A DNA stretch of 64,000 bases from Amoebophrya sp. A120 (GCA_905178155.1 CAJINV010000005.1:5550279-5614278), one strand, 5' to 3'. Positions 1 through 63,812 are shown, counted from the first letter of the stretch. Numbers and translations: made by a program. The notes: generated from the sequence alone by a model not told the origin.

Positions 1-91
1 CTAGGTCATGCATTACAGGCATCTTGGGTCATGAGAAATATGCATGACAAATCTTGCATTCTTCCAGACCCAGACATTTTTACATTTGATA
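1..91. mobile_element. Introner family A, right part (truncated by window edge)
   Basis: Ends in the family-A right TIR cttccagacccagacatttttacatttgata; next 5 nt (aacag) are the presumed TSD. Confidence 0.85.
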
Positions 92-96
92 AACAG

Positions 97-885
97 ATGA
101 TGGCTGCGAAAGCTGCCGAGGCGGCCTGGTGGCAACAACAGTACCACCAGCATTGTGCTGGTGAGCAACAGCAGCTAGGACATATGGATCAGCATGCTGC
201 ATCGGGAGTTGTAGATCCAACTGGAGCATCAAGTTCTGGCGCTTCTGCACCATCATCTTCGACGCACCAGCAGCAGCAGGAGATTAGGATGCCAGGACTT
301 CTGGCCGCCGGTGCTGCTGGACGCCGCGACAGAACTTCTACGGTAAACTACCCGATGAAAAAATCTTCCACGACAGCACCTCCGACCGAGCCGTACAACT
401 CCCCTGCCGATTTTAAGGATTTTCCCGAGCACGTACAAAGCCAGCTCTTGCAAGCCGCAGAAAGGCAAACTGCAGTGCAAGAGGCAGAGCAAAACGCAGG
501 GCAGTTGGTGGACAAGGCAGAAAGGGCTGCTGCTGCTGCTGCTGCATCTTCTTCTTCCGCAGGACCGGGGGCAAGAGGAACGCCGGCCAGCACAGGAGGG
601 AGTACTACTAGAACTGCCGCCATCCCACTTAGTCTTCACGACCAAGAACTGGAGGAGCAACGTGTAATGGATGTTGACCACCCAGGAGGAGAGTTGCACG
701 TCGCGACATCCAGCGCACACACACAAAGACAAAGGATGAATCTTTTTCGCGGGCCGCCTCAGGCAGCGCACCCGTGGAAGCCATTTATCAAAAAACCTGG
801 AGCAGCGGGCGGAGCAGGAGGAGGCTCTGGCTCTGCCAGCAGTGGTGCTGCTGGAAATAAGTACAGGAAAGACCATAGAAAATGA
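97..885 (+). CDS. Last exon of a low-complexity (Q/A/S/G-rich) hypothetical protein
   Basis: ORF 31..885; its first 22 codons come from the introner; TGA at 883-885. Confidence 0.7.
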   Translation: MMAAKAAEAAWWQQQYHQHCAGEQQQLGHMDQHAASGVVDPTGASSSGASAPSSSTHQQQQEIRMPGLLAAGAAGRRDRTSTVNYPMKKSSTTAPPTEPYNSPADFKDFPEHVQSQLLQAAERQTAVQEAEQNAGQLVDKAERAAAAAAASSSSAGPGARGTPASTGGSTTRTAAIPLSLHDQELEEQRVMDVDHPGGELHVATSSAHTQRQRMNLFRGPPQAAHPWKPFIKKPGAAGGAGGGSGSASSGAAGNKYRKDHRK

Positions 886-3232
886 GAATCATATCGTGAG
901 AAGCGCAAGCTTTAAAAGTGCAACTGAAGAAGTAGGCCGCTTCTAGCTCTGCATGAACACGATGATGTCGGTATTTTTTGTGCTGTCAAGTTTTGTTGCA
1001 TTTGCATCTCTTCGCTTCTTCCACCTGATATTGTCCTCTCTGAACTGAAAAATAATTTATCGGGCAAGATTAGTGAGCACGTACACGTAGACGTAGAAGA
1101 CCTCCTCATTTTCACAAATAAATTCGAGGTAGATACAACCCGGGTTTTTTCAAAATCCGGGGTACACGTAAAGGCGTTTAATATTTTTCCATCAAACAAG
1201 AAGAACTACCGAGAATACAGCTTTAAGTTTTGTCTAAGCTCGCTTTCTTTTATAACTTGAATCCAGGGCGACGGGTGGCCAGTTTGTTGTAGCAATAAAA
1301 TGATGTTGCGTAATATGCGCTCCGCCCTAGCGCTAGCCTAACAAGAGACCAAAAAACCTTTTACGAAATAAATGAAAAGCAGCACACCTGCACGTGCTAT
1401 GTAAGTATTTGCTTTTTTGACGATCATTTGAATTTCTCGATAGGGATCGAGTACTGGATACAGCACTCCGATGCATTTTGATTTTTTTTTCTTTTGCACT
1501 AATCAGACTTAGGGATACAGTCAGACAGGGGGCAACATATATTGCATTTTCTACTACCGTGCACGACAAGCAAGCGAATACGTGCAACGAGAAGCATAGC
1601 ACCCTTGATGCGAAATATTTCACTACAACAAAGGGCCCACGTTGCGGACCCCGGCATAAAGAGAAGACGCTCGACTTTATTGTAGAAAACTAGTACAACT
1701 TCGCCCTTTGGTCTTGCTTCCTCTGAGAAGTATTAAAACGGAACTATAATCCAGATCTTAATTTTTTTGTAGATACAACAAACGGCGCTTCATGCACAAG
1801 CCCTAGCGCAACAACTTCTTTTGAGAATATAGATTTCTTCTGCGACAGCTCGCAAGTGCATGGTTGTGGAATGCAATGCTCCTTATTTCTTGCAGTCGTA
1901 TGAATTATATGAAAATAAATACAAATACTCAGTGTTGAGAACAAAGAGAAAGGCCATCAGAGATTGAAATGGTTCTCTGCAAAAATGTTGAAATGAACAA
2001 AGAGCTGCAAGAATTTCTTTAAGTTTTCGGGAACGACTAAAATGCAAAAATGATTTCTTTTTTCTCACAAATGTTCTTGACTACGCTCTTGATGAGCAAG
2101 CAGTTTATCGGAAAAATGGAGAAAGCCGGCCTCTGTTGCCACTTCCTGTCGTGGTACGACATGGAGTCGAAATTTGAAAAAGTTTTTCTCTTTCAAATTT
2201 TCCTAAATCGTGTTCCTGAACTACAAGGTCATAAGGTGTTGCTCTTGCTTTTCGTACACACATGAAATCGTTCAAGTAGATTTTTTAGACAGCACTGTGT
2301 CGTACTAGTATCATGAAAGAAGTCCTTACTATGAGAGCGCCAGGAGCATCGTGCGATCATATTATAGTTCGTGGACATGATTGGCAAAAATTCACTCCAA
2401 AATTTTCACATCAAAATTAAAATTTAGTTTCGGCCACGGGCACCACAAATCGAATTCAAATTTGAGAACTTGAGGAGCCGCAAACCGCCTGTGCGTACAA
2501 GAACTTTGCAACTTGCACTTTTCCATCAGAGACGTTCTTCTTTTCACAAAAAAAAAATCACGCATTCATACAAACTACGAAGCTTCAGTCCTCGAGAAAC
2601 GATTCAAAGTTTTGCACGAAAAAGGGTAGAAGACCCCCCAAACTTGTTTTCCCCCGATAATATCCAATATCGGATCTAAAATTTTATTGAGTTCCTTATC
2701 CTTTGAATGTTCCATACAAAGAAAAAGGTTTATTCCAACTTTCTAGCACGACGTTTCTCAGCATCTGCAACTGCATCATCTGAGTTGTACTAGAAGAGAG
2801 GGTGCATTTAACATTTCTTTCGCTTTGAGTTTCATTTTCCATTTCCCGTTCTTTCGCAGCGATGAAATGATTCCACCAGCAATAGCACACGATTTTTCTG
2901 AACTTTCCCAATTTTTTCTCAACCTGACGACATCGATAGTCAGAACAAATTTCATCCTGACAGCACGAAAATCTAAATCTTCTAGGAGCAGTACAGCAGG
3001 TTTCTGTGCGACCACAACTATCGAGCGACCGATGGTCCACCTCTGAGTCGGCGATTAAATCTTATCTCGTCGCCGCCCGGGTTCATCTTTGTTTTATTTT
3101 CGTTGAAGAACAAGATGAACAACGACCAACCTATTATTTCCTTTTAAAGTTTCATATATTGCCTTGTTCCTATTTGTATTTCCTGAACGTCCGACGTCTG
3201 AAATTTCTAGTTTCCAATTCTAGTTTCCAAAA

Positions 3233-6200
3233 ATGTCAAGTTTTATTCCCACCATGTTCGGAGGTCTCGGCGAGGTGGATATGCATATGGACAACAACCT
3301 ATCCAACAAAAAAGTGTTAACGTTAACGGTTTTCACAGATGGCAGTCATTCATTACAAATTTTGCCTTCCAGCAATACAAATCTGCGCACCTTTTTTCAT
3401 GCATCACTGCATCACAAATTCCGTTTAACGTTAACACTTTTTCTTGTGATGCAACCCTTACAATAACGACAGCACAACGGGTATTGGTGGAACAACTCCT
3501 GGTGCCAATAACATGATGACGAACAACGCGACTAGTTCTCCGACCGCGAAAATGGCCACGGGGATCATCACGCTCCTTGGAAAAGACATGGCGGTCTGCG
3601 AAACGGTGCACAATGAGAAGGACGACGAGTTCGGGCACACGAGTCTTTTCGGCCAGACAGCTTCGGAGGTGAAGGTGTACTTTCCGCAGGTATGCATTGC
3701 ATGCAAAAGTATGATCTTCGTACTCGTTCCAATGCCAGTCTTGCATATACAGATCTAGTTTTGCACCTGAAACAGCATGACAAATGCCAGCTTTTCTGTA
3801 TGGAATAATTTGTCATGCCATTCATATTGGTACGACGACGACTTCCTACGATGACGATATTTTTGCGATGCATAGCAGGGAAAGCTCGATCATTTCGTTC
3901 TCAAGCCCGGCGACCAACTCGCTTTCGAGCTCGACGAATACCAAGACCCAACGAGAAACGTCCCGGAATCCCAGGTGTGGGCTTTGAACCCAGTGTCCCT
4001 CGAGCATAAATTTTCTTCCGACATGAAAGGCCACGGCGCGAAAAGGGAACTCATCGAGCAGCAAGTCTTTCCCTTTCCGAAACATGTGGGGAAACTAGTC
4101 AGGTACAGCAAAGAACATACGAAACAGGGCGGGAACATATCCTGAGTAAAAATGTCCCCACACCAGAGTCAAGATGGGAAATCTGCTAGACAAATCAGCC
4201 AGCTTTGGTTGTTTCGCATGACAAATTTGTCCTTGTAGTGTAATCCTGTTTAGCTAGTTCCGAAGCATTACAGACCTAGCGCGTCATGCTGATTCTAGCA
4301 TCACAAATTCCGAAACGCGGCGAGGAGATGGCTCGTATGGGGCTCCGCATGAGAGACTTTTTTGGCATGCAATTTTGCATGACAACTCTGAGATGGGGAC
4401 GTTTTTACTCAGGATACAACATTCGCGGGAACTTCGGCAACGGGTTTATTGAGGCCAAGGACGCGGCGGACTGTGATATCTACATTCACCATTCGATCGT
4501 GTTAGAAACAATCCCGATGATGACCTTTGTCGCCTTCGACGTACATTACAACGCGCAAAACAAGCCGTATGGAAGCCTCAGAATCGAATAAATCAATAAA
4601 GTTGAAATAGTTTGTCATGCATAAAATGCAACGCAGAAAGTGCCTGTCTTGCAGACTAGGCAAGGGAGGCACATTGTAAGCCTGTTTCGGGGTAGAAATA
4701 GAGCTGCCAAAGCTGCATGAAAAAAGGCGTCTTCCTTACCCAAACAGCATTACAAACTGGATTTCGGCTCTACTCAAATTTGTAATGCGCGGCTTAGAAA
4801 TTGGGCTTGCAACTGGTATCGATTTTATGCATTACAAGTTACTTCAACTTTGTCGATTTCAACTCTGACACATCCATAAGCCGCAAGCCAGCGCCCCGCT
4901 GTGGCAGTTGGTCGAGGATTTGCCGAGTTCGAAAACCGTGTGGGAACAGCAGCTACAGAACAACAATAAAGGCGGAAACAACAACATCAACTCTGGTGGC
5001 CTCATTACCGCTCCTTCCTCTGCGCAGAAGCCCGCCCTGATGCAGCGCTCTTCGTCCCTCCAGACAGCGACAATGACGCAGAACAATAAACTCGATAAAA
5101 ATGATCAGCTGAATCTGTTGCAGAACATCACTTCTGTTTTAACCAACATCGTGACTGGGAATCAGTCCACGTCCGACGCCGGCGCGGCTCTGGCGCAACT
5201 CGGGCAAACCATCCAAGCGCCACAAACGCAGAGGGTTGGAGCAGGTATGGGGATGATGAGCAACAACGTGGGAACTACTACGCAGCGAATTCAACCACCA
5301 GGAGGGGTTAATACAGCGATGTTGACTTCGCAAAACAACAAAAGAGATCCAAACGAGAAGGAAACTTTTTTGAACCCAGCCCGGCACATCAAGGACGAGG
5401 CAAGGGAGTATTTGGAAAAAAATTTGGACAAAACGGTCCTGAAAGACATCCACATCGGCGTGATCGGCGATTTCACCCCCGACGGCGACCACACCATCAT
5501 CCACGCGGCGGAGTGCAATGTCTCGACCGACCGCAGCCAAATCCCGCAAAACGGTATGTACTTCGTACCGAACTACGTTTTGGGGAAGTACGAGTTGAAA
5601 CGGGGCACGATGATCGCCTTCCGGATTGAGTTGAGTAAGGAGGGACACCCGCTAATGCAGCACGCGGATTTCGTGAAATTCGGAACCGGGTTTGGGATTT
5701 GGGAGCTCACGACACCCTTCCGGGCGGAACAAGATGTAATTTTCGGAGATTACTTCGGAAAGTAGGAATGGGAAGAAGAAGTCATGGAAGTCATTGGAGG
5801 AACGCCGGTTCTCAAATCATCAATATCCGGTTGTCTGTGATCATTACAAGCTGCGATGCATTTTGAGAGGTTGATGGTTGTTAGGATCGAAAGTGTAGTG
5901 TTGTGTAAAAGTGTACTTCAACCATTTAACGTGTTAGCCAACTACACGCAAAACTCAGCGAAGTTGCAGTCTGTGCAGGCGTCACGCGCATTCGCATTTT
6001 TCGGTTATTATATATGATTTTATGGTGCCACAGAATTTCATGTAATCTCTAAACCGATATAACAACCAAATAAAGAACCGCGCACGATAAAAAAAGCTTC
6101 CACGATCTTCCTCTTCCTTTCCATACCACGATCGTGAATATGTCAACGGCTGGCAACGCGTTTGTCGAAACTAATGTGCTGAAGAAAGAGTACAAAAACG

Positions 6201-8204
6201 ACGCCTACATTCACGACAAGATCATGGAATTGTGCCACCTGGGTCTGAACAATGTTATCTGCTTTCGCGTGCACATCTCCGGTTCTGGGAATCCCCAGGT
6301 TTCCGCCCCGGTGTGGCGGTTGTGCATCCCGGGCGGGCACAAGGGGGAAAACGACCCGGCGTTGCTGTTTCAGGTAAAGATTTGTGTTTCATCTGTTTGC
6401 GCTTTTCACCATTGCGATTTATCACTCTATGCTTAGGCAGCATGACAAATTATGTATGAAGCTGCAGCTCAGGAGCAATTCTTTGTCTTTTCCACAACAA
6501 CAGCAAGCGCTGGCGGAGAAGAAAACCGGTCCGACGGTTTCCGCGGCCGCCGCCCAGCATCAAACCACCGCGACGATTCGATCGAGCAGCAAACTCCTGA
6601 TCCAGCAGGTCTCGGAGGAGGAAAAGCAGCATGATGATGGGGAAAACCTGTGGGAGCTTCGGTCCCTGGACGAGAAGCACACCATGCGGGACATCGCCTT
6701 CCACAATTTTGAGTACGAAGGCTTCGTAAACAACATCAACAAGGTCGGGCATGTATCCTGTGCAAAAGTATCGTACTCGTAGTAATCGCAATCATGCATT
6801 ACAAATTTCCATCCCAAAGCAAAATAGCATGAGAAATTCCATTCGTTATGCTGACCGAATTTGTAATGCGATTTCTACTAGTACAATGCTTTTGCAATGC
6901 ATAGCATGGCTTCGCTCGCGCCCCCGGGTATTTCGTCGACGAAAAGAACCGGAACATTTTCCTCCACAAGGACATGGTAGAACGCGGGGAGATGAAGCCC
7001 AACATGCGGTTTATGCATTGCAAAAGTATCGCACTTAGTACGAGATTGCATGACAAATTTTCTCCGGTTGAAAAATGAATTTGTCATGCTAGAACAGTAG
7101 AAAATGAGTTTTGTCATGCATGGTTGCGATGCATTACCATTACTTTGAGTGCGAAGATGCTTTTGCATTTGATACGGTTTCGTTTCAAGCTGCATTTTAA
7201 CAAGGAGGGGTTACCGCAGGCGAGCCAGCCGGTCTGGGTGTGCCTAACCGCGGAGGGGGCGGCGACGGGAGAGCAGGCGGACGGAAAGGGGGCTACAGCT
7301 TCTTCCACGGGAGGTGCGTTAAACGTGGTCCCGGTAGTGGGAGCCACAGCCGGAACAGCCATAATGGCGGGGCGGAACGGAGCAATCGGAGGTGCTCCGC
7401 GGCTAAACTTAGCAGCCACTGGCGGCTCGGTTGGAGGGCACCAGCAACCGCAACAGCCGCAGATAAACAATCGCAACCCCTTGTTTGGCACGTCCACCGC
7501 TCCTAATTTTAATCCTTCTGGTGGAGCAGCTGCAGGTACAACTTCTAAAAAGCTGATGCCATTGCCGGGTCGCCCTCCGGCGATGGGGCAGCAGCAGTAT
7601 CAACTGTAAAAATGTCTGGGTCTGGAAGAATCCACCTTGTCATGCTGATTTTGGATTCTAAAAAAATCTGTATTGCAAGAGCAGCAAAGAGAGTCCAAAT
7701 TTTGCAGCACGGAAAGAGCATTTGTCATGCGGAATAGGCTTCAGGAAGCCCTCTAAAAATCTGTGATGCTAGGGCATGCGTCACAGACTTGAGGAGTCAT
7801 GCAAAATGTGCATGACAAACCTGGCAATCTTCCAGACCCAGACATTTTTACATTTGATAAGCAGTCGCAGGTGACTACAAAGGGAAATAACAATAACTTT
7901 TCTACAAAAGGCGGCGGGAAGGGTGGCAAGGGGAAGATATGACAGGAAGAAGTGTTAACGTGAAGGTTAACGGAATTTGTGATGCAGCAATGCATCTTCA
8001 CGAAACGTATCAAAATTTGTCATGGATAGCATGCATATTGGGCTACATTTGTGATGCATGACTGCAATCTGTGAACACCGTTAACGTTAACACTTTTTCC
8101 TGTGATAGAAGAACAAGATCAACGAAGATTATAGGATGGACAGTTTTTTGCCCAAAAACCTGTTCGGAAATAGCAACCAGGCGAGCAGGCCGACTCCGTA
8201 TTAG
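3233..8204 (+). CDS. Multi cold-shock/OB-fold domain RNA-binding protein, split by 9 introners and 1 canonical intron
   Basis: Removing each element plus one TSD gives one ORF with repeated CSD-like motifs (GNGFIEAK..DIYIHHS; GNAFVE..DAYIHDK; GHGFARA..NIFLHKD), each followed by F.V/LH...G/K.PQA/VS.P.W; ends PTPY-TAG. Confidence 0.8.
3300..3451. mobile_element. Introner family C
   Basis: TIR ...aaaaagtgttaacgttaacgg / ccgtttaacgttaacactttttc; TSD caacc; join DNN-PYN in frame. Confidence 0.85.
3691..3874. mobile_element. Introner family B (diverged)
   Basis: tatgcattgc..caaaagtat / atatttttgcgatgcata; TSD gcagg also yields GT-AG ends; join FPQ-GKLD. Confidence 0.85.
4138..4416. mobile_element. 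Introner family D
   Basis: TIR tatcctgagtaaaaatgtcccc / ggggacgtttttactcaggata; TSD gaaca/caaca; join GGN-IRGNFG. Confidence 0.9.
4568..4878. mobile_element. Introner family E
   Basis: Long TIR tatgga...aaagttgaaata...tgcataaaat; TSD agccg; join NKP-QASAPLW. Confidence 0.9.
5763..6125. mobile_element. Decayed introner (singleton family)
   Basis: Degenerate TIR taggaatgggaagaagaagtcatggaag / cttccacgatcttcctcttcctttccata; TSD decayed (gaaag/ccacg); removing element +5 nt gives YFGK-IVNMS. Confidence 0.7.
6374..6503 (+). other. Canonical GT-AG spliceosomal intron
   Basis: cag|gtaaag ... ctttgtcttttccacaacaacag|caa; phase 0, joins LLFQ-QALAEK. Confidence 0.7.
6754..6903. mobile_element. Introner family B
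   Basis: TIR tatcctgtgcaaaagtatcgtac / gtacaatgcttttgcaatgcata; TSD gcatg; join VGH-GFARA. Confidence 0.9.
7012..7174. mobile_element. Introner family B
   Basis: Family-B TIRs; TSD cggtt; join NMRF-RFKLHF. Confidence 0.9.
7598..7859. mobile_element. Introner family A
   Basis: 32-bp TIR tatcaactgtaaaaatgtctgggtctggaaga; TSD agcag; frame restored. Confidence 0.92.
7938..8107. mobile_element. Introner family C
   Basis: tatgacaggaagaagtgttaacg / cgttaacactttttcctgtgata; TSD gaaga; removal eliminates a TGA and extends the ORF to 8204. Confidence 0.88.
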
Positions 8205-8219
8205 GAGGTGCATTTTTAT

Positions 8220-8434
8220 TATGCAAGAAAAAAAGAAAAACTGTGTAAGTGTAACTCTGTAATGCAAAACATGCAACAGAGTTACACCTGTCATGCCACA
8301 CAGCCATGAAGTCCTTTTTTCATGTGTATTTTCCCTTACAAGCCACACATGACAGGTTTTTTCTGTCATGTAGAGCAAATCTGTGATGCTGTCAGCCAAA
8401 GAAAGTTACACTAACACAGTTTTTTTCTTGGATA
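8220..8434. mobile_element. Introner family F, just 3' of the stop codon (3' UTR)
   Basis: tatgcaagaaaaaaa..actgtgtaagtgtaac / gttacactaacacagttttttcttggata; TSD tttat. Confidence 0.88.
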
Positions 8435-19198: not shown

Positions 19199-19784
19199 TA
19201 TCGCACCAAAAAAATATATCATACTCATACCGGACCGAAAAAAGTCCAAAAAACGCATTTTTTTCAATTTTTGATTTTTCAAAAATCTTCGCGGTGTCCG
19301 GCAGAGTCAGGTACCTTGTTTTGTTTTGATGATGGAATGGCATGGATCTTGCATCTATCTATTTTGGCTGCTTGTAGTAGTTTAACTAGCTATTAGGAGG
19401 CGGTTAGGTGCCGCATATCCGGGAACGCTGCTGGCCACATCCACTCCGTCGGAATCGTCGCCTTCGGCCCCAGGTGGGGCCGAGGAGCATCATGACGAAG
19501 AGCAAGGTCTGGACAAGAGCAGCGGGAGCATCCGTGCCAGCCGCCTCCTTCTAGCTAGTTAAACTACTACAAGCAGCCAACTCATAGCGTAGCATATTTC
19601 TCATCCAAAAAAAATACTCCAGGTCTTACCTCCAAACCCCGCAAATTCGTCGCCGGAAAAAAAAAATCGCTGATGAAATACTTGAGTTTTTCGACAAAAA
19701 TGTTGCGCTTTTTCCAAAAAAATGACAATTTTTCATGGTTGAATTCGCGTGAATATGAGTATGATATATTTTTTTCGTGCGATA
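19199..19784. mobile_element. Introner-type element in the probable 3' UTR, carrying a nested element
   Basis: 31-bp TIR tatcgcaccaaaaaaatatatcatactcata (1 mismatch); TSD aaact. Confidence 0.85.
19356..19586. mobile_element. Nested inverted-repeat element (MITE/introner-like)
   Basis: 29-bp perfect IR ttggctgcttgtagtagtttaactagcta (starts 19364, ends 19580), extendable to ~40 bp; tat...ata ends; weak TSD gcatc/gcgta. Confidence 0.7.
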
Positions 19785-51748: not shown

Positions 51749-51751
51749 GAA

Positions 51752-51911
51752 TATGCAGTGCAAAAGCATCGCACTCGTATAAATGCATGACAAAAAATTC
51801 CCGCCTCAGCGTCAGAAATGAAATTTGTAATGCGGATTTACCTTGAGCAAAAAAGTTGTAATGCACGACTGCAATACCAATACGAGTACAGTACTTTATT
51901 TGCACAGGATA
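51752..51911. mobile_element. Introner family B
   Basis: Family-B TIRs; TSD aggaa. Confidence 0.88.
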
Positions 51912-51965
51912 AGGAAACGGAAAGAATCTTCAGAGGCGACCACGTAGGTCGTCGTGTACGGAGAG

Positions 51966-52182
51966 TATGCCAGTGCACAACTCCCCCTCCCCCTCATTTG
52001 AATCGCATGAGCAGCAACACAAGCCACGCCAGCAATGTGGCTTCCGCATGACAAAACTGCAGACGGATTGTAGTACTGTTTGAGGCTCCAAAATTTGTCA
52101 TGCAAACTGTGCTCGAAGGCAAGACGTGGCCTTGGTATTTTGCATTACAAATGAGGGCAAGGGGGAGTTGTGCACTCTCATA
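51966..52182. mobile_element. Introner family G
   Basis: tatgccagtgcacaactccccct / agggggagttgtgcactctcata; TSD gagag/gagaa. Confidence 0.88.
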
Positions 52183-52313
52183 GAGAAAGTAGAGCAACGT
52201 GAAGATGCTTCATGCTTTCAAGAAAAAGATAAACAGATATTTATGAAGAACTCGATGCACATATTCAAAAATAACAGGATGAGCAAAAGTGTGGAATCTA
52301 ATTTTCAGGCCCC

Positions 52314-55300
52314 ATGGCATTGTTCATCGCGCCACTTTTTGAAAGCATCAAGAAAGAATTGCTCAACTACTTAATCACAACTCTGTCACGTCGCGCTTTC
52401 TATCTGAAAAACCGAGATTGCCGGTGGAGGATTCTCGTCTTCCTCTTCTGCTACTGCTTGCCGTTTTCCATCCACTGTGCGGTATGCAATGTAAATTTCC
52501 CGTACATGTACAAAATGCATGACAAATTTCGCTAACTTGCAGTGTCCAACTTGTCATGCTAGACTAGGACTGAAGGCAAGTTTTGTCATGCAGAGACTGC
52601 ATTTGTACGTGTGCGGGACATTTACTGTGGATATGCGGCCACACTACCCTATTACGTTGACTTGTGGCCGCAAGGCGTCGGGTATGACACTGCACAACTC
52701 CCCCTCCCCCTTATTTGCTTAGCATGAACGGCAATACAGGCGTCCGCAACAAGAATGCAGGTTTTACATGACAAATTTGCAGAGGAGTGCAGTGCTATTT
52801 GGGCTGCCAGAACTTGTCATGCAAAAAGTGCCGGGAGGCAAAAGGTAGATTTGGTATTTTGCATTACGAATGAGGGGGAGGGGGACGGAGTTGTGCACTC
52901 TCATATCGGGCTGCACTTAGACTTCGACGATGAACAATATGGAAATTTCTGCACGGTCCGAAAAACCACGCCCTGGATAACGATCGTGCCTTTCCGCATG
53001 AACTTTCTGTTTTCGGACACGAGGTGTCGCAGTGTTGATCGATCGAAATTGGGATTTTTTGTGAGGAAAAAAGAGATCAAAGGGACGGCGGAAACCGGTG
53101 CGCATCGGGTGCTGCTGGTGGATTTCGAGTTGATAAACGCGGGCAGAAGTTCGGCAAATCCCGCAAGAACAGCAAGTACAGTCGCAGCGAATTATCCTGT
53201 TGCGCAGGCAAGTGTTTCTAGTTCTACCACACTAAGCGTAACAAGTGACCCAACAGCCAACTACAGTTCCGTCGTTGATGGTGTGGACCCCTTGAAACAG
53301 CGGGCGCTCGCGTTGCAACGTGAACTACTCGCCCGGACTGCCGTCTTTCGGACAGGGAGTGGGAGGAACGATGCAAATGGCTTTTGCGACATCTTCTTGA
53401 CCGAACCACAGCCCAGCGACCGGGCGGAAGAGCACAATCTGTATGGAGCGCTCTACCGACACGGTGGGGAGGTCACGGAGGTTTTGACGCTGCGAAACAG
53501 TCGCGACGACATATCTACTTCCGGCGGTGCAAGTGCGGATGTCCTCAATTTGGACACATATAAATCGACGACATCTACTTCAGATGGACAGGCGAAAATT
53601 ATACCGGTTTTTGTGCAGGTTGTATCAGCCGGCGGAGCATCAAGCCCTGCCGCGACCAGGGGGGGCACCAGCACGTCTACAGTTATTTTTATCTCTGCCT
53701 ACAACAGCCATGCGGTCGGAAGTACTTCGAGCCGCAATACCACAAAAAATGCAACATCAGTTGTTTTGGAGCAAGCAGATGATCCCGCCGGAGAAGCGGC
53801 CGCAATGAGCTCCACAGGAGCTGGAGCTGCAAACGCGACCTCCATGTTCTTGCAGACGGTGAACCACACTGCCCTGCGTCCGTTTGTCCACCCGGATTTC
53901 TCCCTTCTTGTCCAAGTCACAACAAGGGCAAACGACACAGCTTTATTGACAAACCTGACTGAGCGGGCTACTTCCCATTCGAAGAACAGCTCGTCCTCCG
54001 TGGACGCAGAGCAGTGGCTTCAGCGGCAGATTGAAATCCTGGAATTTGTATTGGCAGTCGCGCATGAAAATGTGGATCATGAAGCTAGTACAACATCATC
54101 ATCGAGTACAACAACTGTGGAGGCAAGTAGAACAAGTACGGCTTACGCAAGTACTAGCACACGGCGGGGCCGCACAGAATTAGAATTGCAGAAGATCTCG
54201 CTGGTCCTGTCGTCCACCAAATTTCAAAGAGCAACCTTCATCAAAGTCTCCTGTAACCACTCGCCGTTTCAACACTTCACGCAGCCGTTCTACCACTACA
54301 GGAACGTAGATGCTGATCCGACGGACACGCCAATCGGGCAAGCGCACGATGGTACAACAGCGGGCGCGACAAGGACGGGGACGGGCGAAACCTCGGGAGC
54401 CCCTTCGCCATCTTCTACTTCGAGTGGCGGTACTATCCCGACCTACAACCATTTACCCATTCTGATCCTCGTCATCGACGCGATTGGGCGGGCCGAGTTC
54501 GTGCGAAAATTTCCCAAGTCGTTTGAGTTTCTGAAGAAAATGCAAATGGAACAAACCGAGTCCGGCACTTCTACATCTCCAAGTACAAATACAGCGGGTA
54601 GAAATCTTCAAGATCAAGAGCCGCCCACGTACCACCTTTTCGACTTCTATGGATGTGTCAGAGTTGAAATCGACAAAGTTGAAAAAACTTGTAATGCATA
54701 AAATGCGATGCAAAAAGTGACTCTATTGCAGAGGACGCAAGGGAGGTAGATTATAGTCCTGGTAAGGGTCAAAAGTTGGACTGCTGACTAGCATGACAGA
54801 AGGCAGCTCTTTTGCCCTAAACCGCATGACAGACTCGCTGTCAGGACCGGGAAAATTTGTTATGCACCGACTACAAACTGCAGGTCTAACTGGCATCCAT
54901 TTTATGCATGGTAAATTATTTCAACTCTGTCGATTTCAAACCTGACACTCCCATAACTTCGTGCGACACCAGGCAAGCGGGTTTGCGACCTACCAAAATG
55001 TCGTCGGCATGTTCTACGGCTCAACTGCCTACAACCTCGAGCAGTGCCCTGTGTTTTGGAGTCACAGCGCAAATTCTTCCGTCGTGATTAGCTCTCAAAT
55101 GAACGAGACCGATTGGATTCGGAAAAGGATATGTGTTGCAAAAACTTATCGTGCTGGTACGTAATTCGAATTGCAATAGTGAGCATGGCATATTATGGAC
55201 GAATTTGTCATTGGTATTGGATTCGGAGTCCGAGTCGGATATTTTTCGGAGCCGCAACCGGAACAAGGAGGTCTGTCTTGCTCGTGTTGCATCATGTTCC

Positions 55301-57938
55301 TTGCGATTACAGTACGAGCACGATATTCTTTTTGCACAGGATGAAAGATTCTGCTTCCCGACTTCGACAAAGACGCAGGGAAAACGGAGACCGTGTCATT
55401 ATTACCCTCATCGAAAAGTAGAACGTTACACCGGCAAGTCCGGAAGCGTTTCAAAGCGGATCTCGGTGGTGCGAACGTTTTCGAAATCACTACTGTGGGT
55501 AAAAACGTTTCCACCCCATAGTGAAGTTGGTGAAATCCCAACACAAGTCTCCAAGTTTTGGGAGTTGTGCATGACAAGTCTTCATCTGCGGCGTAGTGCT
55601 GGTTAGCCAGGGAAGCTGCCGCATGAGAAAGCCACTTTCTCATCCTCTTTGCAGCAATACAAATCCCAAAACACGATAGAAAACGCGTTTCATGGATTTG
55701 CGCATTACATAATGTTCCAGTCATAGCACATTTGCATGACAACTCTGGGACCTTCATAGGGACGCTTTTGCTGAGGATAATCACCTCTCCCTTCGGCACC
55801 GAGCCCGAGCTGTGGGACCGGGAAAACCCGTATGATATCTTGAGCGGCGGGGTGTATCCTGTGCATAAGTAATATCGTATTCGTATTGCAATCAGGCATT
55901 ACAAATCTTTTTGGTAAGTCAAATCCGCATTACAACTTTTATTTCTCACGCTGAGGAAATTTCAAGAATTTGTAATGCATTTATACGAGTGCGATGCTTT
56001 TGCAGTTCATAGGGTGTATTCGGCTACCATTCGGTGTCTGCAAGACAGGTTTTCGCACCAGTTTCAACTGGACACGGCCAAGTACGAGCGAGACGATGTA
56101 GTTCTTGCAGAACAAAGAGCTAGTGGTCCGGAGGATGATCCCCGTCCTGAGGAAAGTGAGCAAGAGGAAAAGGGCTTCTCGTTTGACCAATTGATCTTGG
56201 AGGAACTGAAGGCAAGGAGAAGTACAAGTAGAGCTCTTCCTTTACTTGCGTCTGCGTGGTCGGGCAGCAGTAGTTCTACATCATCGACGCAAGAGTCGGA
56301 GGACAAAATATCACCAAAGCCGCCGCGACAGACCCGGCGCCGCCCCGCAGTTTCGATCCACTGGTTCTTGGAAGCGCACGAAGTGACCCGAGCGGTTGTG
56401 GAGACTATGGATGAGCATTTGTTGCGGTATTTGCAAACCATATTTGGTGATGGTGGTGGAACACGTAGAAGTTCTGTCGCCAACTCTACCGCAATCTTTC
56501 TTCTCTCTGACCACGGGAACCACCTAGGGGCCTACCCCGCTGTCTTTGATAACGGATTCGTCGAGATGAGTAATCCTCTGTTGCTCATGTCGCTGCCGAG
56601 GTGGTATAACGTTCTGACAACTACATCAAAAAGTACCGGAGATGGCGCTTCAAAAAACTCTTCCTTTACTATGCAGTCCCTGCTCCGACGTTTGCGGCAG
56701 CACTACACGACGCACTTCGATTATCCAAGAAAAAAGCATATATAGGAGTAACTTTTTTGGAGGAATAGCATTACAAATTTGTCTGACATGACAGCAAAAA
56801 CCTGTCATGCGCAGATAGTACGTGAAAACGCCCTTTAATGGACCCTGCGATGCATGCCAAGCATGACAGACGCAATCATCTTTCATGTTGAGCATCACAA
56901 ATTTACACTAACAACGTTTTTTTCTTGGATATCGATTTGTACGAGACCTTTGTCGACATCGTACGCACTCTATGCAATACAAATTTTTAGTCCCGTACTT
57001 ACATGTAGCACAAGATGCATCACAAATTTCGCCAGTTTATTGGGGTCTACAACTTGTCGTGCTAAACTAGGGCTGAAGCAGCTAAGGTTTGTCCTGCACA
57101 AACAGCATTTGATTGTGCGTTGTGTGCGGGAGTATCAAATTTACTTTCGATACACTCCGATTTGGAAGCAGGGGGTGCTAGATTGGAAACTTCAGCGAGG
57201 GATCTCTTTGTCCGCGGAAGAAGACTATGCTGTGCAAAAGTATCGTACTCGTAGTACTTAATCGCATGTATGCATGACAAATCTCTTTTTTAAGGTAAAT
57301 CAGCATGAGAAAAAATTCCATTTGTCATGCTGAGCAAATTTGTGATGCGATTACTACTAGTAAGATGCTTTTGCAATTCATAAAGACCTTTTGCCAGCGA
57401 CCGAACTGACGACGCCACCTTTGGAACTACGGTGCAGCGCTTTCGTATGGGAGTGTCAGGATTGAAATCGTCAGAGTTGAAATAGTTTGCCACGCATAAA
57501 ATGCAAGGCGTGAGGTGCCTGTCTTGCCGGGATGGCAAGCGAGGCAGATTGTGAGCCTATTTTTTTAGGATTTGAAATAGAGCTGCTAAAAGAGCATGAC
57601 AAAAGCAGTCTTCTGTGCCCATACAGCATGACAGATTGGATTCCGGCGCTCCGAAAATTTGTCAAGCGCCGCCTGGAAATTGGGGTTCCAACTGGTATTC
57701 ATTTTATGCATGACAAATTATTTCAACTTTGACGATTTCAATCCTGACACTGCCATAGTTCGGCCGAAGTTTCTTTCGCCAGGCAGCGTCGCTGTCAACG
57801 GATCTAAGTGGCGGGGCGGGGGCGGGGGACCAGTTCTTGAAGCGGCTCAACCAAATCAGATTCGGTGGAGCAACCGGCACGCATGTCATGGGTATCCTCA
57901 CAGGAAACAAGGTCGTTGAAAAACTGCTTCAGTTGTGA
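52314..57938 (+). CDS. DUF229-like (alkaline phosphatase/sulfatase superfamily) membrane protein with 10 introners
   Basis: Rejoined motifs LPILILVIDAIGRAEFVRKFPKSFEFL; IFLLSDHGNHLG..GFVEMSNPLLLMSLPRW; HYTTHFD-LYETFVDI; RGISL; start and end approximate. Confidence 0.7.
52483..52633. mobile_element. Introner family J
   Basis: tatgcaatgtaaatttcccgtaca / tgtgcgggacatttactgtggata; TSD tgcgg. Confidence 0.88.
52683..52905. mobile_element. Introner family G
   Basis: Family-G TIRs; TSD tcggg; join GVG-LHLDF. Confidence 0.9.
54648..54955. mobile_element. Introner family E
   Basis: Family-E TIRs; TSD acttc; join LFDF-VRHQ. Confidence 0.9.
55130..55343. mobile_element. Introner family B (diverged)
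   Basis: TSD aagga/aaaga; join RKR-ILLPD. Confidence 0.78.
55491..55779. mobile_element. Introner family D (diverged)
   Basis: tactgtgggtaaaaacgt / acgcttttgctgaggata; TSD atcac; join FEIT-SPFG. Confidence 0.8.
55855..56011. mobile_element. Introner family B (reverse orientation)
   Basis: TSD gggtg; join SGGV-YSAT. Confidence 0.9.
56722..56931. mobile_element. Introner family F
   Basis: tatccaagaaaaaa / tttttttcttggata; TSD tcgat; join THFD-LYET. Confidence 0.9.
56971..57152. mobile_element. Introner family J
   Basis: Similar to 52483; TSD cactc; frame restored. Confidence 0.85.
57226..57382. mobile_element. Introner family B
   Basis: Family-B TIRs; TSD aagac. Confidence 0.88.
57446..57757. 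mobile_element. Introner family E
   Basis: Family-E TIRs; TSD tttcg/gttcg. Confidence 0.9.
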
Positions 57939-59607
57939 TGTTCTTCTCTTTTCTTGTTGTGTTGTTCTCCTCTTTTCTTGTAACCGGGTCATCAGGACGA
58001 GGTTCTTGCTGTTGTCGCATTGACAGCACTGACTGCATGTTGGCCTCCCAAAGTTTCCACCTTGTGCTGCGAGAGAAAAAAAAAACCACGCGCGGCAAGA
58101 GGTCCATGCATGCAAAAATAGCGAGAGGTGAAACTCAAATCTTACTTGCCCACAGATGTACGTAGTGAAGCACTTTTTCCATGGGAAAAACGGCCAACTT
58201 ATCAAAGCGAAAAGGCAAAGGCTACTGTTGATTACGATCAGTTCCTCCACGACCAGTGGCAGTTCAAGTGATGTTAAGTAATACGAGGCAAGATCAAGAA
58301 CTACATGATCTCTGCCTCTGGTCACGATTGGGCCCTTGTACGATCACGACTTTCATCCTCTTTCGGCCCTTCATCTTCATCTTCAAATCTCGTAATATTC
58401 TTGCAATGATATGAAATGCAGGAAGCGCGGCGCTGCCACCTGCGATGGATGCTGATGTTGGTCCAACAGCACCATGGGCCTCATTCGGGCGTGATGGTAC
58501 ATATCAAAAGTAGGCCTTTTCGTTTTCATACAACTGCGGAAGAGCTGCATGTGTGAAGAGTGTGAACTTTTTGAGACGTGAGACACTATAATTCATATTT
58601 TCAGAAGAGTCCTCTGTATCTGTATCTGTTAGGGTACAACTTGTTTTCTACTGCGTGTGAACTACAACGCTGTTCGTGTTCTCGAACACTGGGCGTGGAC
58701 CACGTGGGTTGCGTTCCTCGCTCGCTCCTGATCTACTAGGCCTCCTGGTCGTGGCCAAAATGAAAACAAGAGCAGATCGGGCAACTGCTCCTGGCCCCTC
58801 TTCTTCAGCGGAGATGAGTACTGAAGTGGTCCTTGCTCAGCACAAAGGATCAGATTTGTAAGTCCAGTTCGAGTTCGTTCGAAGACAGCATAAATAAAAT
58901 CATGATCAAAAAATTATTTGTAAAGTCTAGTGCGAGCAGCAGTCTCATCAAATCTAACGGCTCTGTTCTGCCCTTGAGATCGATTGAAGAAGCCAACATA
59001 AACATTCCAAGAGTTGTCCGATTTGGTCGGTTTGAGGCTCAGCTAGTTTTAAATAAAATCTATGGAATAAATGTGCACACGATCATCTTCCGCTACAACG
59101 AACTTTCGTGGAAGTATGGAGGACTGCGTCGAAATTATGACGAGCTCCTCGTGAAGATCCAAGTAGTTGTAAGCCTGTAATGTGTGAAGGTGATTCTTTT
59201 GATCTGGTTCCGAATGATGTTCAGGAAAAATCATGATCAACATCACATGACGATGCTCTGGGGCAATATAATTAGAACAGCTAAATGGAGGCTTGTTTTC
59301 TGCCTCCTCCACATCTCGCCCGCTTCCTCTTTCAGTAATATAGCTTCCCGGTAAGTAAACTTCTGCTACTTCTAAATCAGCACAGGAAAGTTGTTTTTCG
59401 TGGAGGTTCTTTGCCAGCGCAGAGGATTTTCTTTCTGATACAACAGCTCTTCTTCAAAACTATTTCCCTGTAGTCCACCACATTGCACAACGACAACGTT
59501 TATCTTCGCTTAGTGTTAGTTGTATTGTGTTTAGTTTTTTCAGTTCTGTTGTACTCGTCAAGGAAGAAGAGCAGTATCGTAAAACAAAGTAAAAAGGCTG
59601 CATAAAG

Positions 59608-61288
59608 ATGTTCAACAAAATGCACTGTTTCCACCTGTTCCACCTCTCCTGCCTGGGGCAGGGCGTGGGGGCTGTGAGCTTGAGCAGTGCAGGTTCTTCG
59701 GCATCCGCCTCCGCATCCGAGGAACCCCAGAAGCCACTGCATCTATTGGACGCCGTGCGCCTTACGTATTTCCACAGGTACCAGGAAACGCCATCCCAGG
59801 AGGAGCTTGCAGCGGCGTATGCGAATCTGAGCGGAATGGCGGTGCCTCCTCAGGCGATTGGACTGTGGCACTGTGGGTTTCTCAACGGTTTTTTTATACA
59901 AACCGAAATCGCGAGCAACTGGGCAAAGGGAATAGACGACCAAAAGGAACTGCCCCTGCCAAAAGCGCAGAAGGCAATCCGGAGTCTCCTTCAAGCGTAC
60001 GAAATGCTCTCCCTGGCGCACGAGGTAGACGCTTCGCCGCCGACTGGTCCTCGTCGTGATCGCACGTTGCCCTCCTACATACGACATGTCAAGTGCTTTC
60101 CCCGGATCAACAAGAAACAAAATGTTGTAGACGGACAGCTCCCGCGAGCAGGACGAGGTGAACATGAATCACCTCGTTGCCGGCTGCCGGATGTTGGCCC
60201 CGAAGATAGTACTATTACCGCCTCGTCTTCTTCTAGTCGTGCTCCTCCCGGTCCTGCAAGTAGAGGCACAGTAGCAGCACCACAAAAACTGGGAGAGCTC
60301 TTTAGCTCAGACGCCAGAGCATTGGCCTTCTTGGTAAAAATTGACCCCGAAGATACGGATAGTCCGAGTGTGGAAGTGAAACGTTTGCTAGCGCGCGTGG
60401 AGAAATTGCAGGCCGCGTTTGAAGAATGGGAGGAAAAAGTTCTGAATGATGCCAGCCTGAGTTCCTCGGCGGAAAAAGACCAGCAGAACTTCTTCACTCG
60501 GAAAGGGGAGGACGAGTGGGAGAGCACCTTCTTTTGGTTCGAGTTCTGGCAGCTCCGGAAGATTGCTGCTTGGGTATGAAAGTGCACATTCCGAACGCCC
60601 CCTCCACCTCAAGGAAGATGAAGATCCCCTCGTTTTTATTGCTGTATGGCATCAACAAGCTCGAAAATATCATCATGAACATCAGCAGTAGAAGAAGAAC
60701 TACTTCTTGTTACCCCAAACGCCGAGAGGCGGCTTTTGCATTAACGTGACGCATTTTTGTTTTTCTCACACGACGAGTGTTGTCGTGCAGTTGGGCAGCA
60801 CCCACCTGGCAGAATCTGTAGTTTCGCGGCAATCTTCGGTGCCACGAACAACTATTGAAGGGTGTACAACCACTTAGCACGACTTCGCATGACAGATCGA
60901 TGAGGGGAGGTGACAGGGGCTTGGCGACGAGCTGTGCACGGTCATATTTGGAGATGAAGCGCCTGAAAGATGACCCACACAACTCTGAAGCGCTTCATGA
61001 CTTTTGGACCCTGTACGGGGGCGGCGCCTATTCGACCCTTCCCACCTCAACGGCAAACGAGGGCAAGTGAACAAATTCCACACGACGGAAAAGATGCGCT
61101 GGGAGGTGGTGGTTGCAGAGGAAGTAAATGGAAAGGGGTCGTGTATCATGTCTCTCGTGATATTGATCAAGCCGGAGCAACATCTGCACGTGCTCACGAG
61201 AGCAGAGCTTTTAGGCTACCTAGGTATCTTCACCGATGTGCTGGAAGCTTCGGAGTTCTATCATGGTCAAGCAGCAGCAGCCGTCTAA
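59608..61288 (+). CDS. Hypothetical secreted protein with two decayed introners
   Basis: ORF 59608..60579 has a signal-like N-terminus; joins AAW-EMKRL and GGA-SLVILIK; TAA at 61286-61288. Confidence 0.6.
60575..60946. mobile_element. Introner family G (diverged)
   Basis: tatgaaagtgcaca / tgtgcacggtcata; TSD ttggg/tttgg. Confidence 0.75.
61029..61145. mobile_element. Highly decayed introner
   Basis: tattcgacccttccc / ggaaaggggtcgtgta; no TSD left, but removing element +5 nt restores the frame. Confidence 0.5.
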
Positions 61289-61979
61289 CCTTCGGAATGA
61301 TGCCCCATATCATGATGAAAATGCCTCTACATCTACACTAAGACATGCGGATCGTGTGTCTCGCACATGCCTGAGTAGAGTGAGGCTGCGCCGCAGCTTC
61401 GCTGTACTTGTTGTCTCTACAGCACTAGTTCCTTCTTCGCGATCGTGAAAAAGTTGTATCTATATTGCAAAATATTGTACCGCTACCGGCACAGTGACAG
61501 TCAACATCTGCACCATCTCCACCACAATCGCTTTCCAGAAAAGAAGTCGTAATTATGTAGGTGATGATCGAAAAATTACAGGAAACATATTTGTTGAAAC
61601 AGAGCTTACTCGTCTCAAATGATTTTTCTTTCGGAAATCATAAATGGTTCGTTTTCTGTTTAGTTTTGGAAGTTTTGTTTTGTGCACGCTCTGAGCATTT
61701 TTTTATCAAATCTTTACCTTTTGGAGCTGTAAACTAAATTGTACTACTCGAATGAAGCACGGTGAAGAGGACCACACAAGAAACATCAAGAAACTGCAAC
61801 TTCTATTTAAGTAAAAGTAATGGCCACGACAGCGGTCGTGGTTATTTATATTTTCTCTATTTGCTACTATTTATGATCTCGAAGTTTTTCATTTTTTGAC
61901 GCCGTGCGGCAAATGTGGAAATCTACCGGTGCGTGATCAACATGCGCTGTTTTGGACGACATTGCGTTACATTCTACAA

Positions 61980-62075
61980 GCTATCCTAGCTTATCCTAGT
62001 GTATGATGAAGCCTGCTTGTCCTAGCCTGCTTGTCCTAGCTATCCTGAGCCTGCTTGTCCTAGTGTATGATGAAG
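61980..62075. repeat. Mosaic short direct repeats
   Basis: gcctgcttgtcctag x3, tcctagtgtatgatgaag x2, gctatcct x2. Confidence 0.8.
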
Positions 62076-63522
62076 TATAAGTAGCGATGTGCTACATTCC
62101 AGAGAGCAAAAGAAGATTGCAGCTGCACCGATAAATTATAGCGAACCGCGGCGGAGGAAACGCAGGCGAGCAGCTTCTTGTTGTATTTGTGGTAATTAGT
62201 TTATGCTGGAGACAAAAGTCATTCAGTGTCAACATTTTGGAACGCATTCCACATCTACTCATTAGTGTTGCTTCACTTCACGAGCACGACCTGCTTCTCG
62301 CCTTTGAGCCACCGCAACATCACATGCGCAGCAGTCGCAGAAGCAGCGTGGTCCTCGAGCACAAATTTACTTTTAGCCGGATCTAGTACTTGGACGTCGA
62401 CGTCCGTTCGTGTTGGTGCTATTTCTACGCAAAAAAAAAAGCAGGAAACAAGCTTTCCGCAGAAGGTCCGTCCGGACTGTCTTTGCCAGAGGAGGCAAGA
62501 TGTCGAAAACAAACGCGACGATGATGTCGCGAAAGTAGAGCAAGAGGCTCTACTTGAAACGGAAAACGCGCGCGAGGAAAGAACATTGCTATGAAATATT
62601 AAATTGCTCCTGTATTCTTGGTCTTCACCAGCGTCCTTTTTTGGTTAAGGGACCACGGACTGACCGCGCAGCACCGCATTTAGTGCTCGGTGTTGTTGTT
62701 CTCTGGTGAAGATGAAACCACGTAGGATATGGATATTAAACTCTAAGTATTAACTGGGTCCTCCAATCCTGGCACCCCCGAAACAGAACAGGATCCGTGT
62801 TGCGAATTGAAAATGATCGATCTGGTGTTGATGCAGCTCTGCTGGTAAAAAAGACAGGAGGTGGTCTCTCTGACCTTGTTCTAAGTGATTAGGTGTTGTA
62901 GAAGATCTTTCCTCATATCAATTAGACCCGTTCAAAAGTTCCATTTTTTTTTGCGCAACCAAAAACTGCCCGTGATTCGAACCAGAAAAAAAGGATTGCC
63001 TACAACGCTCTGATCTTCCATTTCTTTTTCACGGACGAAGATGGCGAGAGCATTTTTATACTACGCACAGTATAATTCCGGGTCTTTGTGCAGCCGATAT
63101 TAGCTGACGCCATCGACATTTCATTCCTACCTTTCGCATCAGAACATCTACCAGTTTTGATGTACCTAGAGTACTTGCTTGTACCTCTTTTTCATATCGT
63201 CCAAGGAGTCAATTCCAAGTGCAAGTTGCACCTGTGGTTTTGAATTTGATGTAGCGAAAAATCAATTTTCTACCTTTACATTTAGATTTAGATTTACTCG
63301 ACGTGGTGGGATATTCTTCCCGTGTTGAACCCTTCAACATATAAGAAGTTCCGCAGAGATATTGTGCCCTCTCCTGTACAATTTTACGTACGGCGTATGC
63401 ACAGCCGTCTACTTTTCTTTTCACAGACACTTCTACATCACACTTGCCGGCTTCGTTTTATTTTTCTCACTACAGCATTTTTGCTGGCCAAAAGTTTTGG
63501 CCCAAAACATCGATCACCAAAA

Positions 63523-63602
63523 ATGGCTTTTTTCAACTACAAGTCGCGCGAAAAGCTTCCGGCACTTCCTCCGACTTGTTTGGCCGGAGCTGCGTCGTGG
63601 CG
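63523..63602 (+). CDS. Probable first exon of a gene running off the window
   Basis: ATG MAFFNYKSREKLPALPP followed directly by an introner, as in other genes. Confidence 0.35.
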
Positions 63603-63812
63603 TATGGAAGTGTCAGGATTGAAATCGTCAAAGTTGAAATAGTTTGTGATGCGTAAAATGCTAGACGCAGAGGGCCTGTCTTGCAGAGCAGGCAACTGAG
63701 ACCGATTATAAGTCTGTTTGGGGTGTGAGGTAGAGCTGCTAAAATAGCATGACAAAAGCAGTCTTCTCTGCTCAAACAGCATGACAAATTGGATTTCCAT
63801 GCTCCCAAAATT
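63603..63812. mobile_element. Introner family E, left part, interrupted by another sequence
   Basis: Family-E left TIR and body; similarity stops at ~63812. Confidence 0.8.

Follow-up and report, generated by a model that had tools for sequence, protein, structure and literature searches.

Introner elements along 64 kb of the Amoebophrya sp. A120 genome: loss from RNA with one copy of a 5-bp repeat, one-sided end conservation and a phased internal motif

The stretch of the Amoebophrya sp. A120 genome analysed here (GCA_905178155.1 CAJINV010000005.1:5550279-5614278; 64,000 nucleotides, hereafter the window) holds long stop-free frames on the + strand that are interrupted by short repeated elements with conserved ends. 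Our curated list contains 51 complete elements. They are 99-2297 bp long, with a median of 215 bp, and are bounded by terminal inverted repeats (TIRs) and by a 5-bp target-site duplication (TSD) that is perfect in 38 and mismatched in 13. The sequence begins TAT at 97 of the 102 element ends, and AAA lies within positions 11-15 at 75 of them; three elements end ATG instead of ATA. A strict scan demanding an exact 5-bp repeat, TAT..ATA ends and a TIR score of at least 20 returned 36 matches, against 0-1 in each of five Markov controls; the curated list then admits drifted repeats and variant ends. Past the five duplicated bases, similarity between the flanks is at or near background (5-16 of 36, in a set preselected for exact 5-mers). 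Outside the 51 stand one element with a 6-bp repeat (31086-31470) and two that are cut by the window ends, so the first-pass annotation's figure of about 52 complete elements holds. Its pattern, NNNNN-TA(T)..(A)TA-NNNNN, is right as a general form and too strict for the 13 imperfect duplications and the three ATG ends.

All of these elements have TIRs, a fixed TSD and no coding capacity, as do miniature inverted-repeat transposable elements (MITEs). By BLAST they form 21 clusters, nine with several copies and twelve with one (the letters A-I label window clusters). They are not unrelated, as the first-pass annotation had proposed for its TIR families (at least ten), because an end consensus and an internal motif are common to them. 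A second assembly (JACKZZ01 contigs) supplied 136 loci, 411 kb in total, that were fetched with the family-B end pattern, so that family B is over-represented by design. These loci carry the window's families at identities of up to 98.5%. Among 341 TIR pairs found there by a scan blind to the TSD, 261 are flanked by an exact 5-bp repeat, 47 by a repeat matching at four of five bases and 11 by an exact repeat of another length. In the window, summed DNA depth reaches 133,000 in element bins against about 23-44 in unique bins, a contrast that is not a copy number.

Deleting an element together with one copy of its repeat reopens the reading frame. With the element plus five bases removed, 40 of the 51 sites are flanked on each side by at least 60 stop-free codons, compared with 11-12 at offsets of +3, +4 or +6 (12 at +4, 11 at +6), and +5 is the best of +4, +5 and +6 for 43 elements. 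After such deletion 46 of the 51 lie inside long stop-free frames on the + strand, up to 2121 codons in length. The earlier claim that removal of element plus one repeat restores the frame is thereby borne out. A Pfam search with 20 host exons gave only weak matches (DUF229, strictosidine synthase, S1), all below the curated cut-offs.

Contigs from four sequencing runs (X3-X6) allow this removal to be read directly. The runs, which come from two samples of one study and were available as contigs only, are guessed to be RNA and not recorded as such; a DNA run, X1, served as the element-bearing comparison. X1 covers all bins, and its unique contigs extend 22-29 nt into elements with 0 differences. 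Cover by X3-X6 is patchy over genes and differs between samples, with intergenic bins empty. Contigs of this RNA type were placed on positions 24801-44780 and 50000-63840, where 23 of the 51 elements could be judged: 22 are removed as element plus 5 nt and one is retained. In the second of these stretches 13 of 14 complete elements give joints, and every joint equals the element plus 5 nt; two of the joints were seen in several runs and eleven in X5 alone, and two have fewer than 31 letters on the short side. A nested element of 1344 bp (49278) is removed as 1349 nt, as read from a loose end of an X5 contig. In the first stretch, 8 of 19 listed elements were judged, among the joints listed, in which those of the DNA run dominate. 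There a single X3 contig with 0 differences removes eight elements, as gaps of 241 and 244 nt and a set of six that totals 1183 nt, which is exactly the summed length plus five of those six. The raw RNA runs X9 and X10 are nearly empty there (81 and 3 reads, those of X9 on one element end that belongs to another locus). The first-pass annotation had named gaps of element plus 5 nt as its own RNA test, and this is what all 13 joints of 50000-63840 and the eight further elements show. Its description of the elements as precisely removed non-canonical introns stands for 22 of them and is not universal, since element 58200-58530 is retained. X5 cover stops at 58529, one base before that element's end, and the mRNA may take its 3' end from the element. 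Removed elements 51752 and 51966 also lie 3' of a stop codon; position in an untranslated region (UTR) is therefore no bar to removal by itself.

Mismatched duplications reveal where the cut falls. Left bases 1-3 are kept in RNA across five such elements (57446, 40320, 43623, 55130 and 60575); 55130 and 60575 show this for base 3. At 51966 the RNA has right base 5. The cut thus lies inside the TSD, after base 3 or base 4, and off the element end. We consider the latter position, register 4, probable. It gives the border exon|N-T-A-T-(G/C)...A-T-A-NNNN|exon and also holds for the two window elements readable as GT-AG. The nine commonest non-canonical intron ends published for A120 all begin N-T, which corresponds to register 4 (Table S4 of PMC7789003). 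Codon fit, stop avoidance and AT drift at mismatched TSDs (seven base-4 cases) do not separate register 3 from register 4. As a hint only, in the segment 62588-63109, X3 and X6 contigs from the same sample both stop at 62588, leaving one base before the strong unpaired TAT end at 62590, and this is the position of a register-4 cut; X4 reaches 62610 and X5 stops at 62571.

Neither the bases at the borders nor the orientation of the element appears to matter for removal. Only two of the 51 window elements can be read as GT-AG introns (3691 and 17886, with TSDs GCAGG and GAAGG), just as the first-pass annotation had it, and the rest depart from the canonical U2 pattern. Among 189 coding-called elements of JACKZZ01, G precedes the element in 58 (31%, against 27% G in coding DNA), AG occupies TSD bases 3-4 in 16 (8.5% against 7.4%), both together give GT-AG at register 4 in six, near chance, and 109 carry a purine at TSD base 5, without marked bias. 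The TSD has no base preference, and GT and AG are dispensable. Removal of family A takes place whichever way the element is turned (51752 as against 55855 and 57226), and in JACKZZ01 all 9 reference families have coding-called copies facing both ways. Under register 4, intron phase 0 is in excess (83/49/57, p=0.007; 21/7/13 in the window); this was not used, as it may reflect target composition.

Conservation of the element ends follows the direction of transcription. The set for this comparison comprises 326 elements from both sources, 230 of them coding-called; 30 have a variant end, and 23 of these are coding-called. In coding-called elements the terminal T is changed at none of the transcript-5' ends and at six 3' ends, two of the six being T>G changes that break pairing, whereas the third base is changed at 11 5' ends and three 3' ends (Fisher p=0.002 for first against third base); second-base changes number two and one. 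Window elements 44796 and 55130 likewise carry a terminal change at the 3' end. Within register 4, the bases so protected fit a U at +2 and an A at -7. Among spliceosomal introns no base is more constant than U at +2, and some protists are known to place the branch point at a short, invariant distance from the 3' cut. A single strand-specific mutation bias would probably not explain the crossover, because it would shift both counts the same way. In an ABC-transporter-like gene (motif recognised by eye) at L001 1030-1796, several elements are nested or in series, and one of them has a variant 5' end.

Inside the elements lies a further common feature, the motif GCATGACAAA, whose core GCAT(G/T/C)ACA(A/G) recurs among the families. 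In its longer form, (T/A)GCAT(G/T/C)ACA(A/G)(A/G)T, it has 209 matches in the 15.7 kb of elements against 13 in the other 48.3 kb of the window, by a model trained on those same elements. This model finds the motif in 321 of 323 JACKZZ01 elements, an independent set, and in 26 of the 27 JACKZZ01 clusters, with copies 30-33 bp apart. This spacing is taken by 13 of 43 gaps in the window, counting one element per family (p=0.004, best-window null), and by 20 of 70 in JACKZZ01, a share reached in 0 of 3000 null runs; the spacers themselves are dissimilar across families. The motif occurs about equally on the two strands (412 vs 466); in 31 of 189 elements its copies are confined to a single strand, which may be either. 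It was not found above chance in the retained element 58200-58530 (best score 2.7), in 19199 or in 31086, and the removed element 43367 has a degenerate copy only. Because 30-33 bp matches about three turns of B-DNA, we regard the motif as a putative binding site for a shared DNA-binding mobilising protein.

We interpret these patterns to indicate MITE-like elements that one transposase or integrase would move and a relaxed U2-type spliceosome, measuring from the element ends, would remove, and we put the probability of this reading as a whole at about one half. Its mobilisation part, a single DNA-binding enzyme of DDE/integrase type, is rather likely. Such an enzyme would bind the phased motif together with the TAT-N7-AAA ends and cut the target with a 5-bp stagger, without sequence preference. 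Removal, for its part, is probably the work of a relaxed U2-type spliceosome. The intron would consist of one duplicated base, the element and four duplicated bases, in the form exon|N-U-A-U-(G/C)...UUUU..(G/C)-A-U-A-NNNN|exon. The invariant U at +2 would come from the element's terminal T. Distance from the element end, not an AG, would fix the 3' cut; the conserved A at -7 is a possible, if somewhat doubtful, branch point. With the TAT-N7-AAA word at both ends, insertion in either orientation would yield a spliceable intron and leave the protein unchanged, and this could have allowed the elements to reach tens of thousands of copies. The spliceosomal proteins, nearly complete, and the U2, U4, U5 and U6 small nuclear RNAs (snRNAs) are reported for A120, where U1 snRNA was not found (PMC7789003). 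The single mobilisation system and single removal system of the first-pass annotation gain support, the one from the common 5-bp TSD, end consensus and phased motif, the other from the common register; we infer both rather than observe them. In its most specific form, in which the A120 spliceosome reads the transposon end through a U at +2 and a putative branch A at -7, with both terminal dinucleotides left free, and one motif-recognising enzyme spreads all families, the proposal is tentative and, taken entire, rather unlikely.

Several observations weigh against this interpretation. Element 58200-58530 is retained despite perfect ends and TSD. One run supplies eleven of the 13 joints, and the four runs represent two samples of one study whose RNA nature is guessed. 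The upper bound on the cut position comes from one contig (51966; depth 2.7, short side of 26 letters), base 4 itself is not read in RNA, and the published pattern of N-T ends could reflect an aligner's preference for GT-AG-like ends. The end asymmetry comes from low counts, and some of the variants may be inherited (4 of the 11 third-base changes are TAC ends of family-G type); the three third-base changes at 3' ends and two second-base changes at 5' ends run counter to strict protection, as does a terminal change at the 5' end of a nested element, L001 1359-1507, for which no open frame is called. The evidence on a role for pairing is mixed: 4 of 21 folded spliced elements are without a terminal stem in the minimum-energy fold, and the inverted-repeat arms have no G-U bias (57 vs 54 in the window, 184 vs 164 in JACKZZ01). 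No transposase or autonomous copy was found in the 64-kb window or the 411 kb of JACKZZ01, and the A120 genome report argues against general transposase-driven spread, none having been found in A120 (PMC7789003).

Removal might instead be non-spliceosomal and guided by structure, in the manner suggested for the nonconventional introns of Euglena: the inverted repeats would pair, and a separate machinery would make a fixed cut 1-2 nt outside the stem on the 5' side and 3-4 nt on the 3' side and rejoin the exons. A cutter of this kind would require no terminal dinucleotide and act irrespective of orientation, and 17 of 21 spliced elements do pair at least 11 of their first 20 bases with the other end (minimum-energy fold). 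Euglena introns have fixed 3- and 5-nt spacers from a paired motif (PMC12501133), and U1 snRNA was not found in A120 (PMC7789003). Yet breaks in the first pair from the 3' side and in the third pair from the 5' side are tolerated, the partner bases changing rarely or never, which suggests that base identity rather than pairing matters; the arms lack the excess of G-U pairs mentioned above, and the retained 58200 element itself folds a 16-pair terminal stem. We see structure-guided removal as the main rival, though a rather unlikely one.

The internal motif could also be read as an RNA splicing signal, recognised by a new factor replacing U1 and needed for removal, not for transposition. Its near-universal presence in removed elements would fit, as would its absence from the retained 58200 element and from 19199, also non-coding, and a strong copy in a GT-AG intron candidate at 6374-6503. 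Against this, the motif is about as common on one strand as on the other, and elements that have it on one strand only may have it on either; its spacing fits the turns of the DNA helix, and the retention of 58200 may have another cause, as its 3' cut site may lie outside the transcript (cover ends at 58529). Element 43367 was removed with its degenerate copy only, and the motif-less element L080 296-752 lies in a frame that +5 removal reopens (by eye, no RNA). Because of these two elements we lower the splicing-signal idea to a rival, and an improbable one. A last alternative is excision from DNA in a feeding stage, in which case the supposed RNA contigs would represent a rearranged genome. 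Ciliate internal eliminated sequences are TA-bounded and excised from DNA leaving one TA. The elements resemble them in having TA-containing ends and in being removed precisely; in addition, the RNA nature of X3-X6 is a guess, and an excised form in X1, which was judged among the joints listed, is conceivable. Against excision from DNA, X3-X6 cover is patchy and sample-specific with empty intergenic bins where X1 covers every bin, and X1 contigs cross the exon-element borders unchanged. Moreover, the cut is asymmetric relative to transcription, end conservation follows the direction of the transcript, and, unlike in ciliates, both TA ends are lost and one 5-mer is left. We regard this possibility as very remote.

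Table 1. Elements of the window, listed without strand. Two unequal or separately noted TSD copies are divided by a slash; removal is as read in RNA-type contigs.
Position	Family or type	TSD	Remarks
1..91	Family-B right end, cut by window start		95.7% over 92 bp to L003; strong unpaired end
3300..3451	Family F	CAACC/CAACC	3' end ATG; frame restored
3691..3874	Family A	GCAGG	GT-AG readable
4138..4416	Element	GAACA/CAACA	37 matches in second assembly
4568..4878	Family C	AGCCG	
6754..6903	Family A	GCATG	
7012..7174	Family A	CGGTT	
7598..7859	Family B	AGCAG	
7938..8107	Family F	GAAGA	
8220..8434	Family D	TTTAT	Directly 3' of stop codon
11221..11440	Family E	CTTCC	
11485..11791	Family C	CCAGT	
17100..17406	Family C, reverse orientation	CTCGT	
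17886..18206	Family G	GAAGG	GT-AG readable; 5' end TAC
18434..18587	Family A	CACCA	
18820..18964	Family A	ACCCG	
19199..19784	586-bp element 3' of stop codon	AAACT	Internal motif at chance level
25070..25321	Family B	GCACC	
26536..26859	Family G, opposite to 17886	GAAGC	X3 piece resumes at 26860
29389..29641	Family H	CTCTC	
31086..31470	Atypical element	6-bp direct repeat	GT-AG readable; without internal motif
31678..31798	Degenerate element	CGGCC/GGGTG	
32875..32973	99-bp element	CAGCA	
33481..33742	Family B	CACAA	
33792..34005	Family D	GTCGA/CTCAA	
34073..34316	Family B	ACAGA	
34839..35050	Family B	CGTGA	
35253..35420	Family A	TGAAC/CCAGC	
38852..39056	Element	GAGAG	98.5% copy in L028
40320..40555	Element	CGAGT/CCAGT	241 nt removed, left base 2 kept (X3 contig)
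41050..41288	Family H	CCAAG	244 nt removed
41835..42086	Family B	GACCA	Removed, in sum of six
42248..42396	Family A	ACGGA	Removed, in sum of six
42849..42997	Family A	TTTTT	Removed, in sum of six
43053..43264	Family D	CTTGC/CTTTC	Removed, in sum of six
43367..43546	Element	GAGAT/GCAAT	Degenerate motif only; removed in sum, found from 185-nt residue
43623..43833	Element	GTTGT/CCTGT	Removed, in sum of six; RNA picks up again at right base 3
44796..47092	Family A, tandem insert	AAACA/TAACA	About 2.8 copies of 762-bp unit; 3' end ATG
49278..50621	Family A, ~1.2-kb insert	GGACA	1349 nt removed; X5 loose end = 49243-49272
51752..51911	Family A	AGGAA	TSD overlaps stop codon; 165 nt removed
51966..52182	Family E, non-coding	GAGAG/GAGAA	222 nt removed, right base 5 kept
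52483..52633	Family I	TGCGG	156 nt removed
52683..52905	Family E	TCGGG	228 nt removed
54648..54955	Family C	ACTTC	313 nt removed
55130..55343	Element	AAGGA/AAAGA	3' end ATG; 219 nt removed, left base 3 kept
55491..55779	Element	ATCAC	5' end TAC; 294 nt removed
55855..56011	Family A, opposite to 51752	GGGTG	162 nt removed, 3 runs
56722..56931	Family D	TCGAT	215 nt removed
56971..57152	Family I	CACTC	187 nt removed
57226..57382	Family A, opposite to 51752	AAGAC	162 nt removed
57446..57757	Family C	TTTCG/GTTCG	317 nt removed
58200..58530	331-bp element, 3' UTR	CAACT (perfect)	Without internal motif; retained in RNA (X5)
60575..60946	Element	TTGGG/TTTGG	377 nt removed in 4/4 runs, left base 3 kept
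63603..63812	Family-C-like left part		Interrupted at 63812, leaves window; RNA departs from window sequence at 63603

Some of the longer insertions have an internal organisation of their own. Within element 44796, the tandem copies at 44837-46970 are 98% identical and end at a short shared word, and they may stem from an insertion of rolling-circle or circle type. The ~1.2-kb insert of the family-A element at 49278 (49400-50600) holds a 20-bp minisatellite in nine copies. No recognisable open reading frame (ORF) was found in the inserts or long elements, and the family-A end pattern had 0 matches in viral contigs; the window gave 0 matches in Rfam. L068 476-2934 was not accepted as a candidate autonomous element: it resembles a family-B copy that has taken up a 2.2-kb secondary insert, which is flanked by an 8-bp repeat and whose only long ORF (415 aa) has no Pfam or atlas match. 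A strictosidine-synthase-like gene is interrupted at 30716-32800 by a segment of ~2 kb lying between near-identical direct repeats of ~42 bp (about 30713-30755 and 32759-32801); the segment encodes an unrecognised ORF of its own, which elements 31086 and 31678 split. The GT-AG intron candidate at 6374-6503 is without TAT..ATA ends, has one strong internal motif (score 18.8) and is perhaps a decayed element. A lone in-frame TAG at 24232-24234 separates the long + frames 23158-24231 and 24235-27268, with read-through or a sequence error both possible. At 41834-41864, 71-77 raw X9 reads join a family-B end to the flank of another locus, that is, an unspliced copy elsewhere.

Comparison with mobile elements places the window copies close to MITEs and integrase-like TIR transposons, with which they share TIRs, a fixed TSD, repeated internal sites and non-autonomy. 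Repeated binding sites and 5-bp duplications are typical of Tn7/Mu-type ends, and the ends of integrase-like TIR transposons read TG..CA. The window elements differ in their TAT..ATA ends and in that their copies act as seamless introns. Introners already published for A120 are the nearest relatives. As described there, their inverted repeats consist of TAT, seven variable bases and at least three A, with direct repeats of 3-5 nt (5 bp in the legend of Fig. S19), and 29,850 copies in 1,954 families are counted (PMC7789003). This end motif agrees with the first-pass annotation's attribution to Amoebophrya. In a later survey with 58 A120 rows, most of the 22 rows considered are TIR DNA elements of unassigned superfamily, and A120 family 38 has integrase-like, Ginger-like homology (PMC12130899). 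Like these introners, the window elements have TAT ends, direct repeats, non-canonical borders, RNA-supported removal, many multi-copy families and no internal transposase, in genes on one strand (PMC7789003, PMC12130899). The element class is therefore already known, RNA-validated removal included, and the first-pass annotation was correct not to call it new (PMC7789003). In the published account the splice sites shift in position with respect to the hairpin and the repeats vary in length; in our data the repeat is a uniform 5 bp and the cut follows base 3 or 4.

Two other groups of unusual introns are instructive. The introns of Fritillaria borealis are also MITE-derived, with TIR and TSD, and an altered U2 spliceosome is reported to remove them; they have preferred ends AG-AC and AG-AT and a conserved U1, whereas the terminal dinucleotides in the window are wholly or partly random target DNA (PMC11282704, PMC13326754). 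Nonconventional introns of Euglena resemble the elements in lacking GT-AG and in having paired ends, TSD-like repeats and a cut at a fixed spacer (PMC12501133, PMC11282704). Their code, N3-CDG...CH'G-N5-6|purine, is not that of the window, N1-2-TAT...ATA-N3-4, which is without purine bias at the junction and belongs to clear multi-copy families. For more than 60% of its introns Amoebophrya does without GT-AG, and both the mechanism of removal and the mover of its introners have been stated to be open (PMC7789003; 2024 review, PMC11282704). In the literature searched (mostly non-subscription, with supplementary figures excluded, and including PMC7789003, PMC11282704, PMC11453091 and PMC13326754), the register, the independence of orientation, the end asymmetry and the motif were not found for Amoebophrya. 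If the spliceosomal reading is true, both terminal dinucleotides of an intron can be replaced by measuring from a transposon end. Thus, set beside the published A120 introners, the window represents a known system with new and testable mechanistic detail, in which register, one-sided conservation and phased motif lead to direct tests of a lariat branch and of a motif-binding protein.

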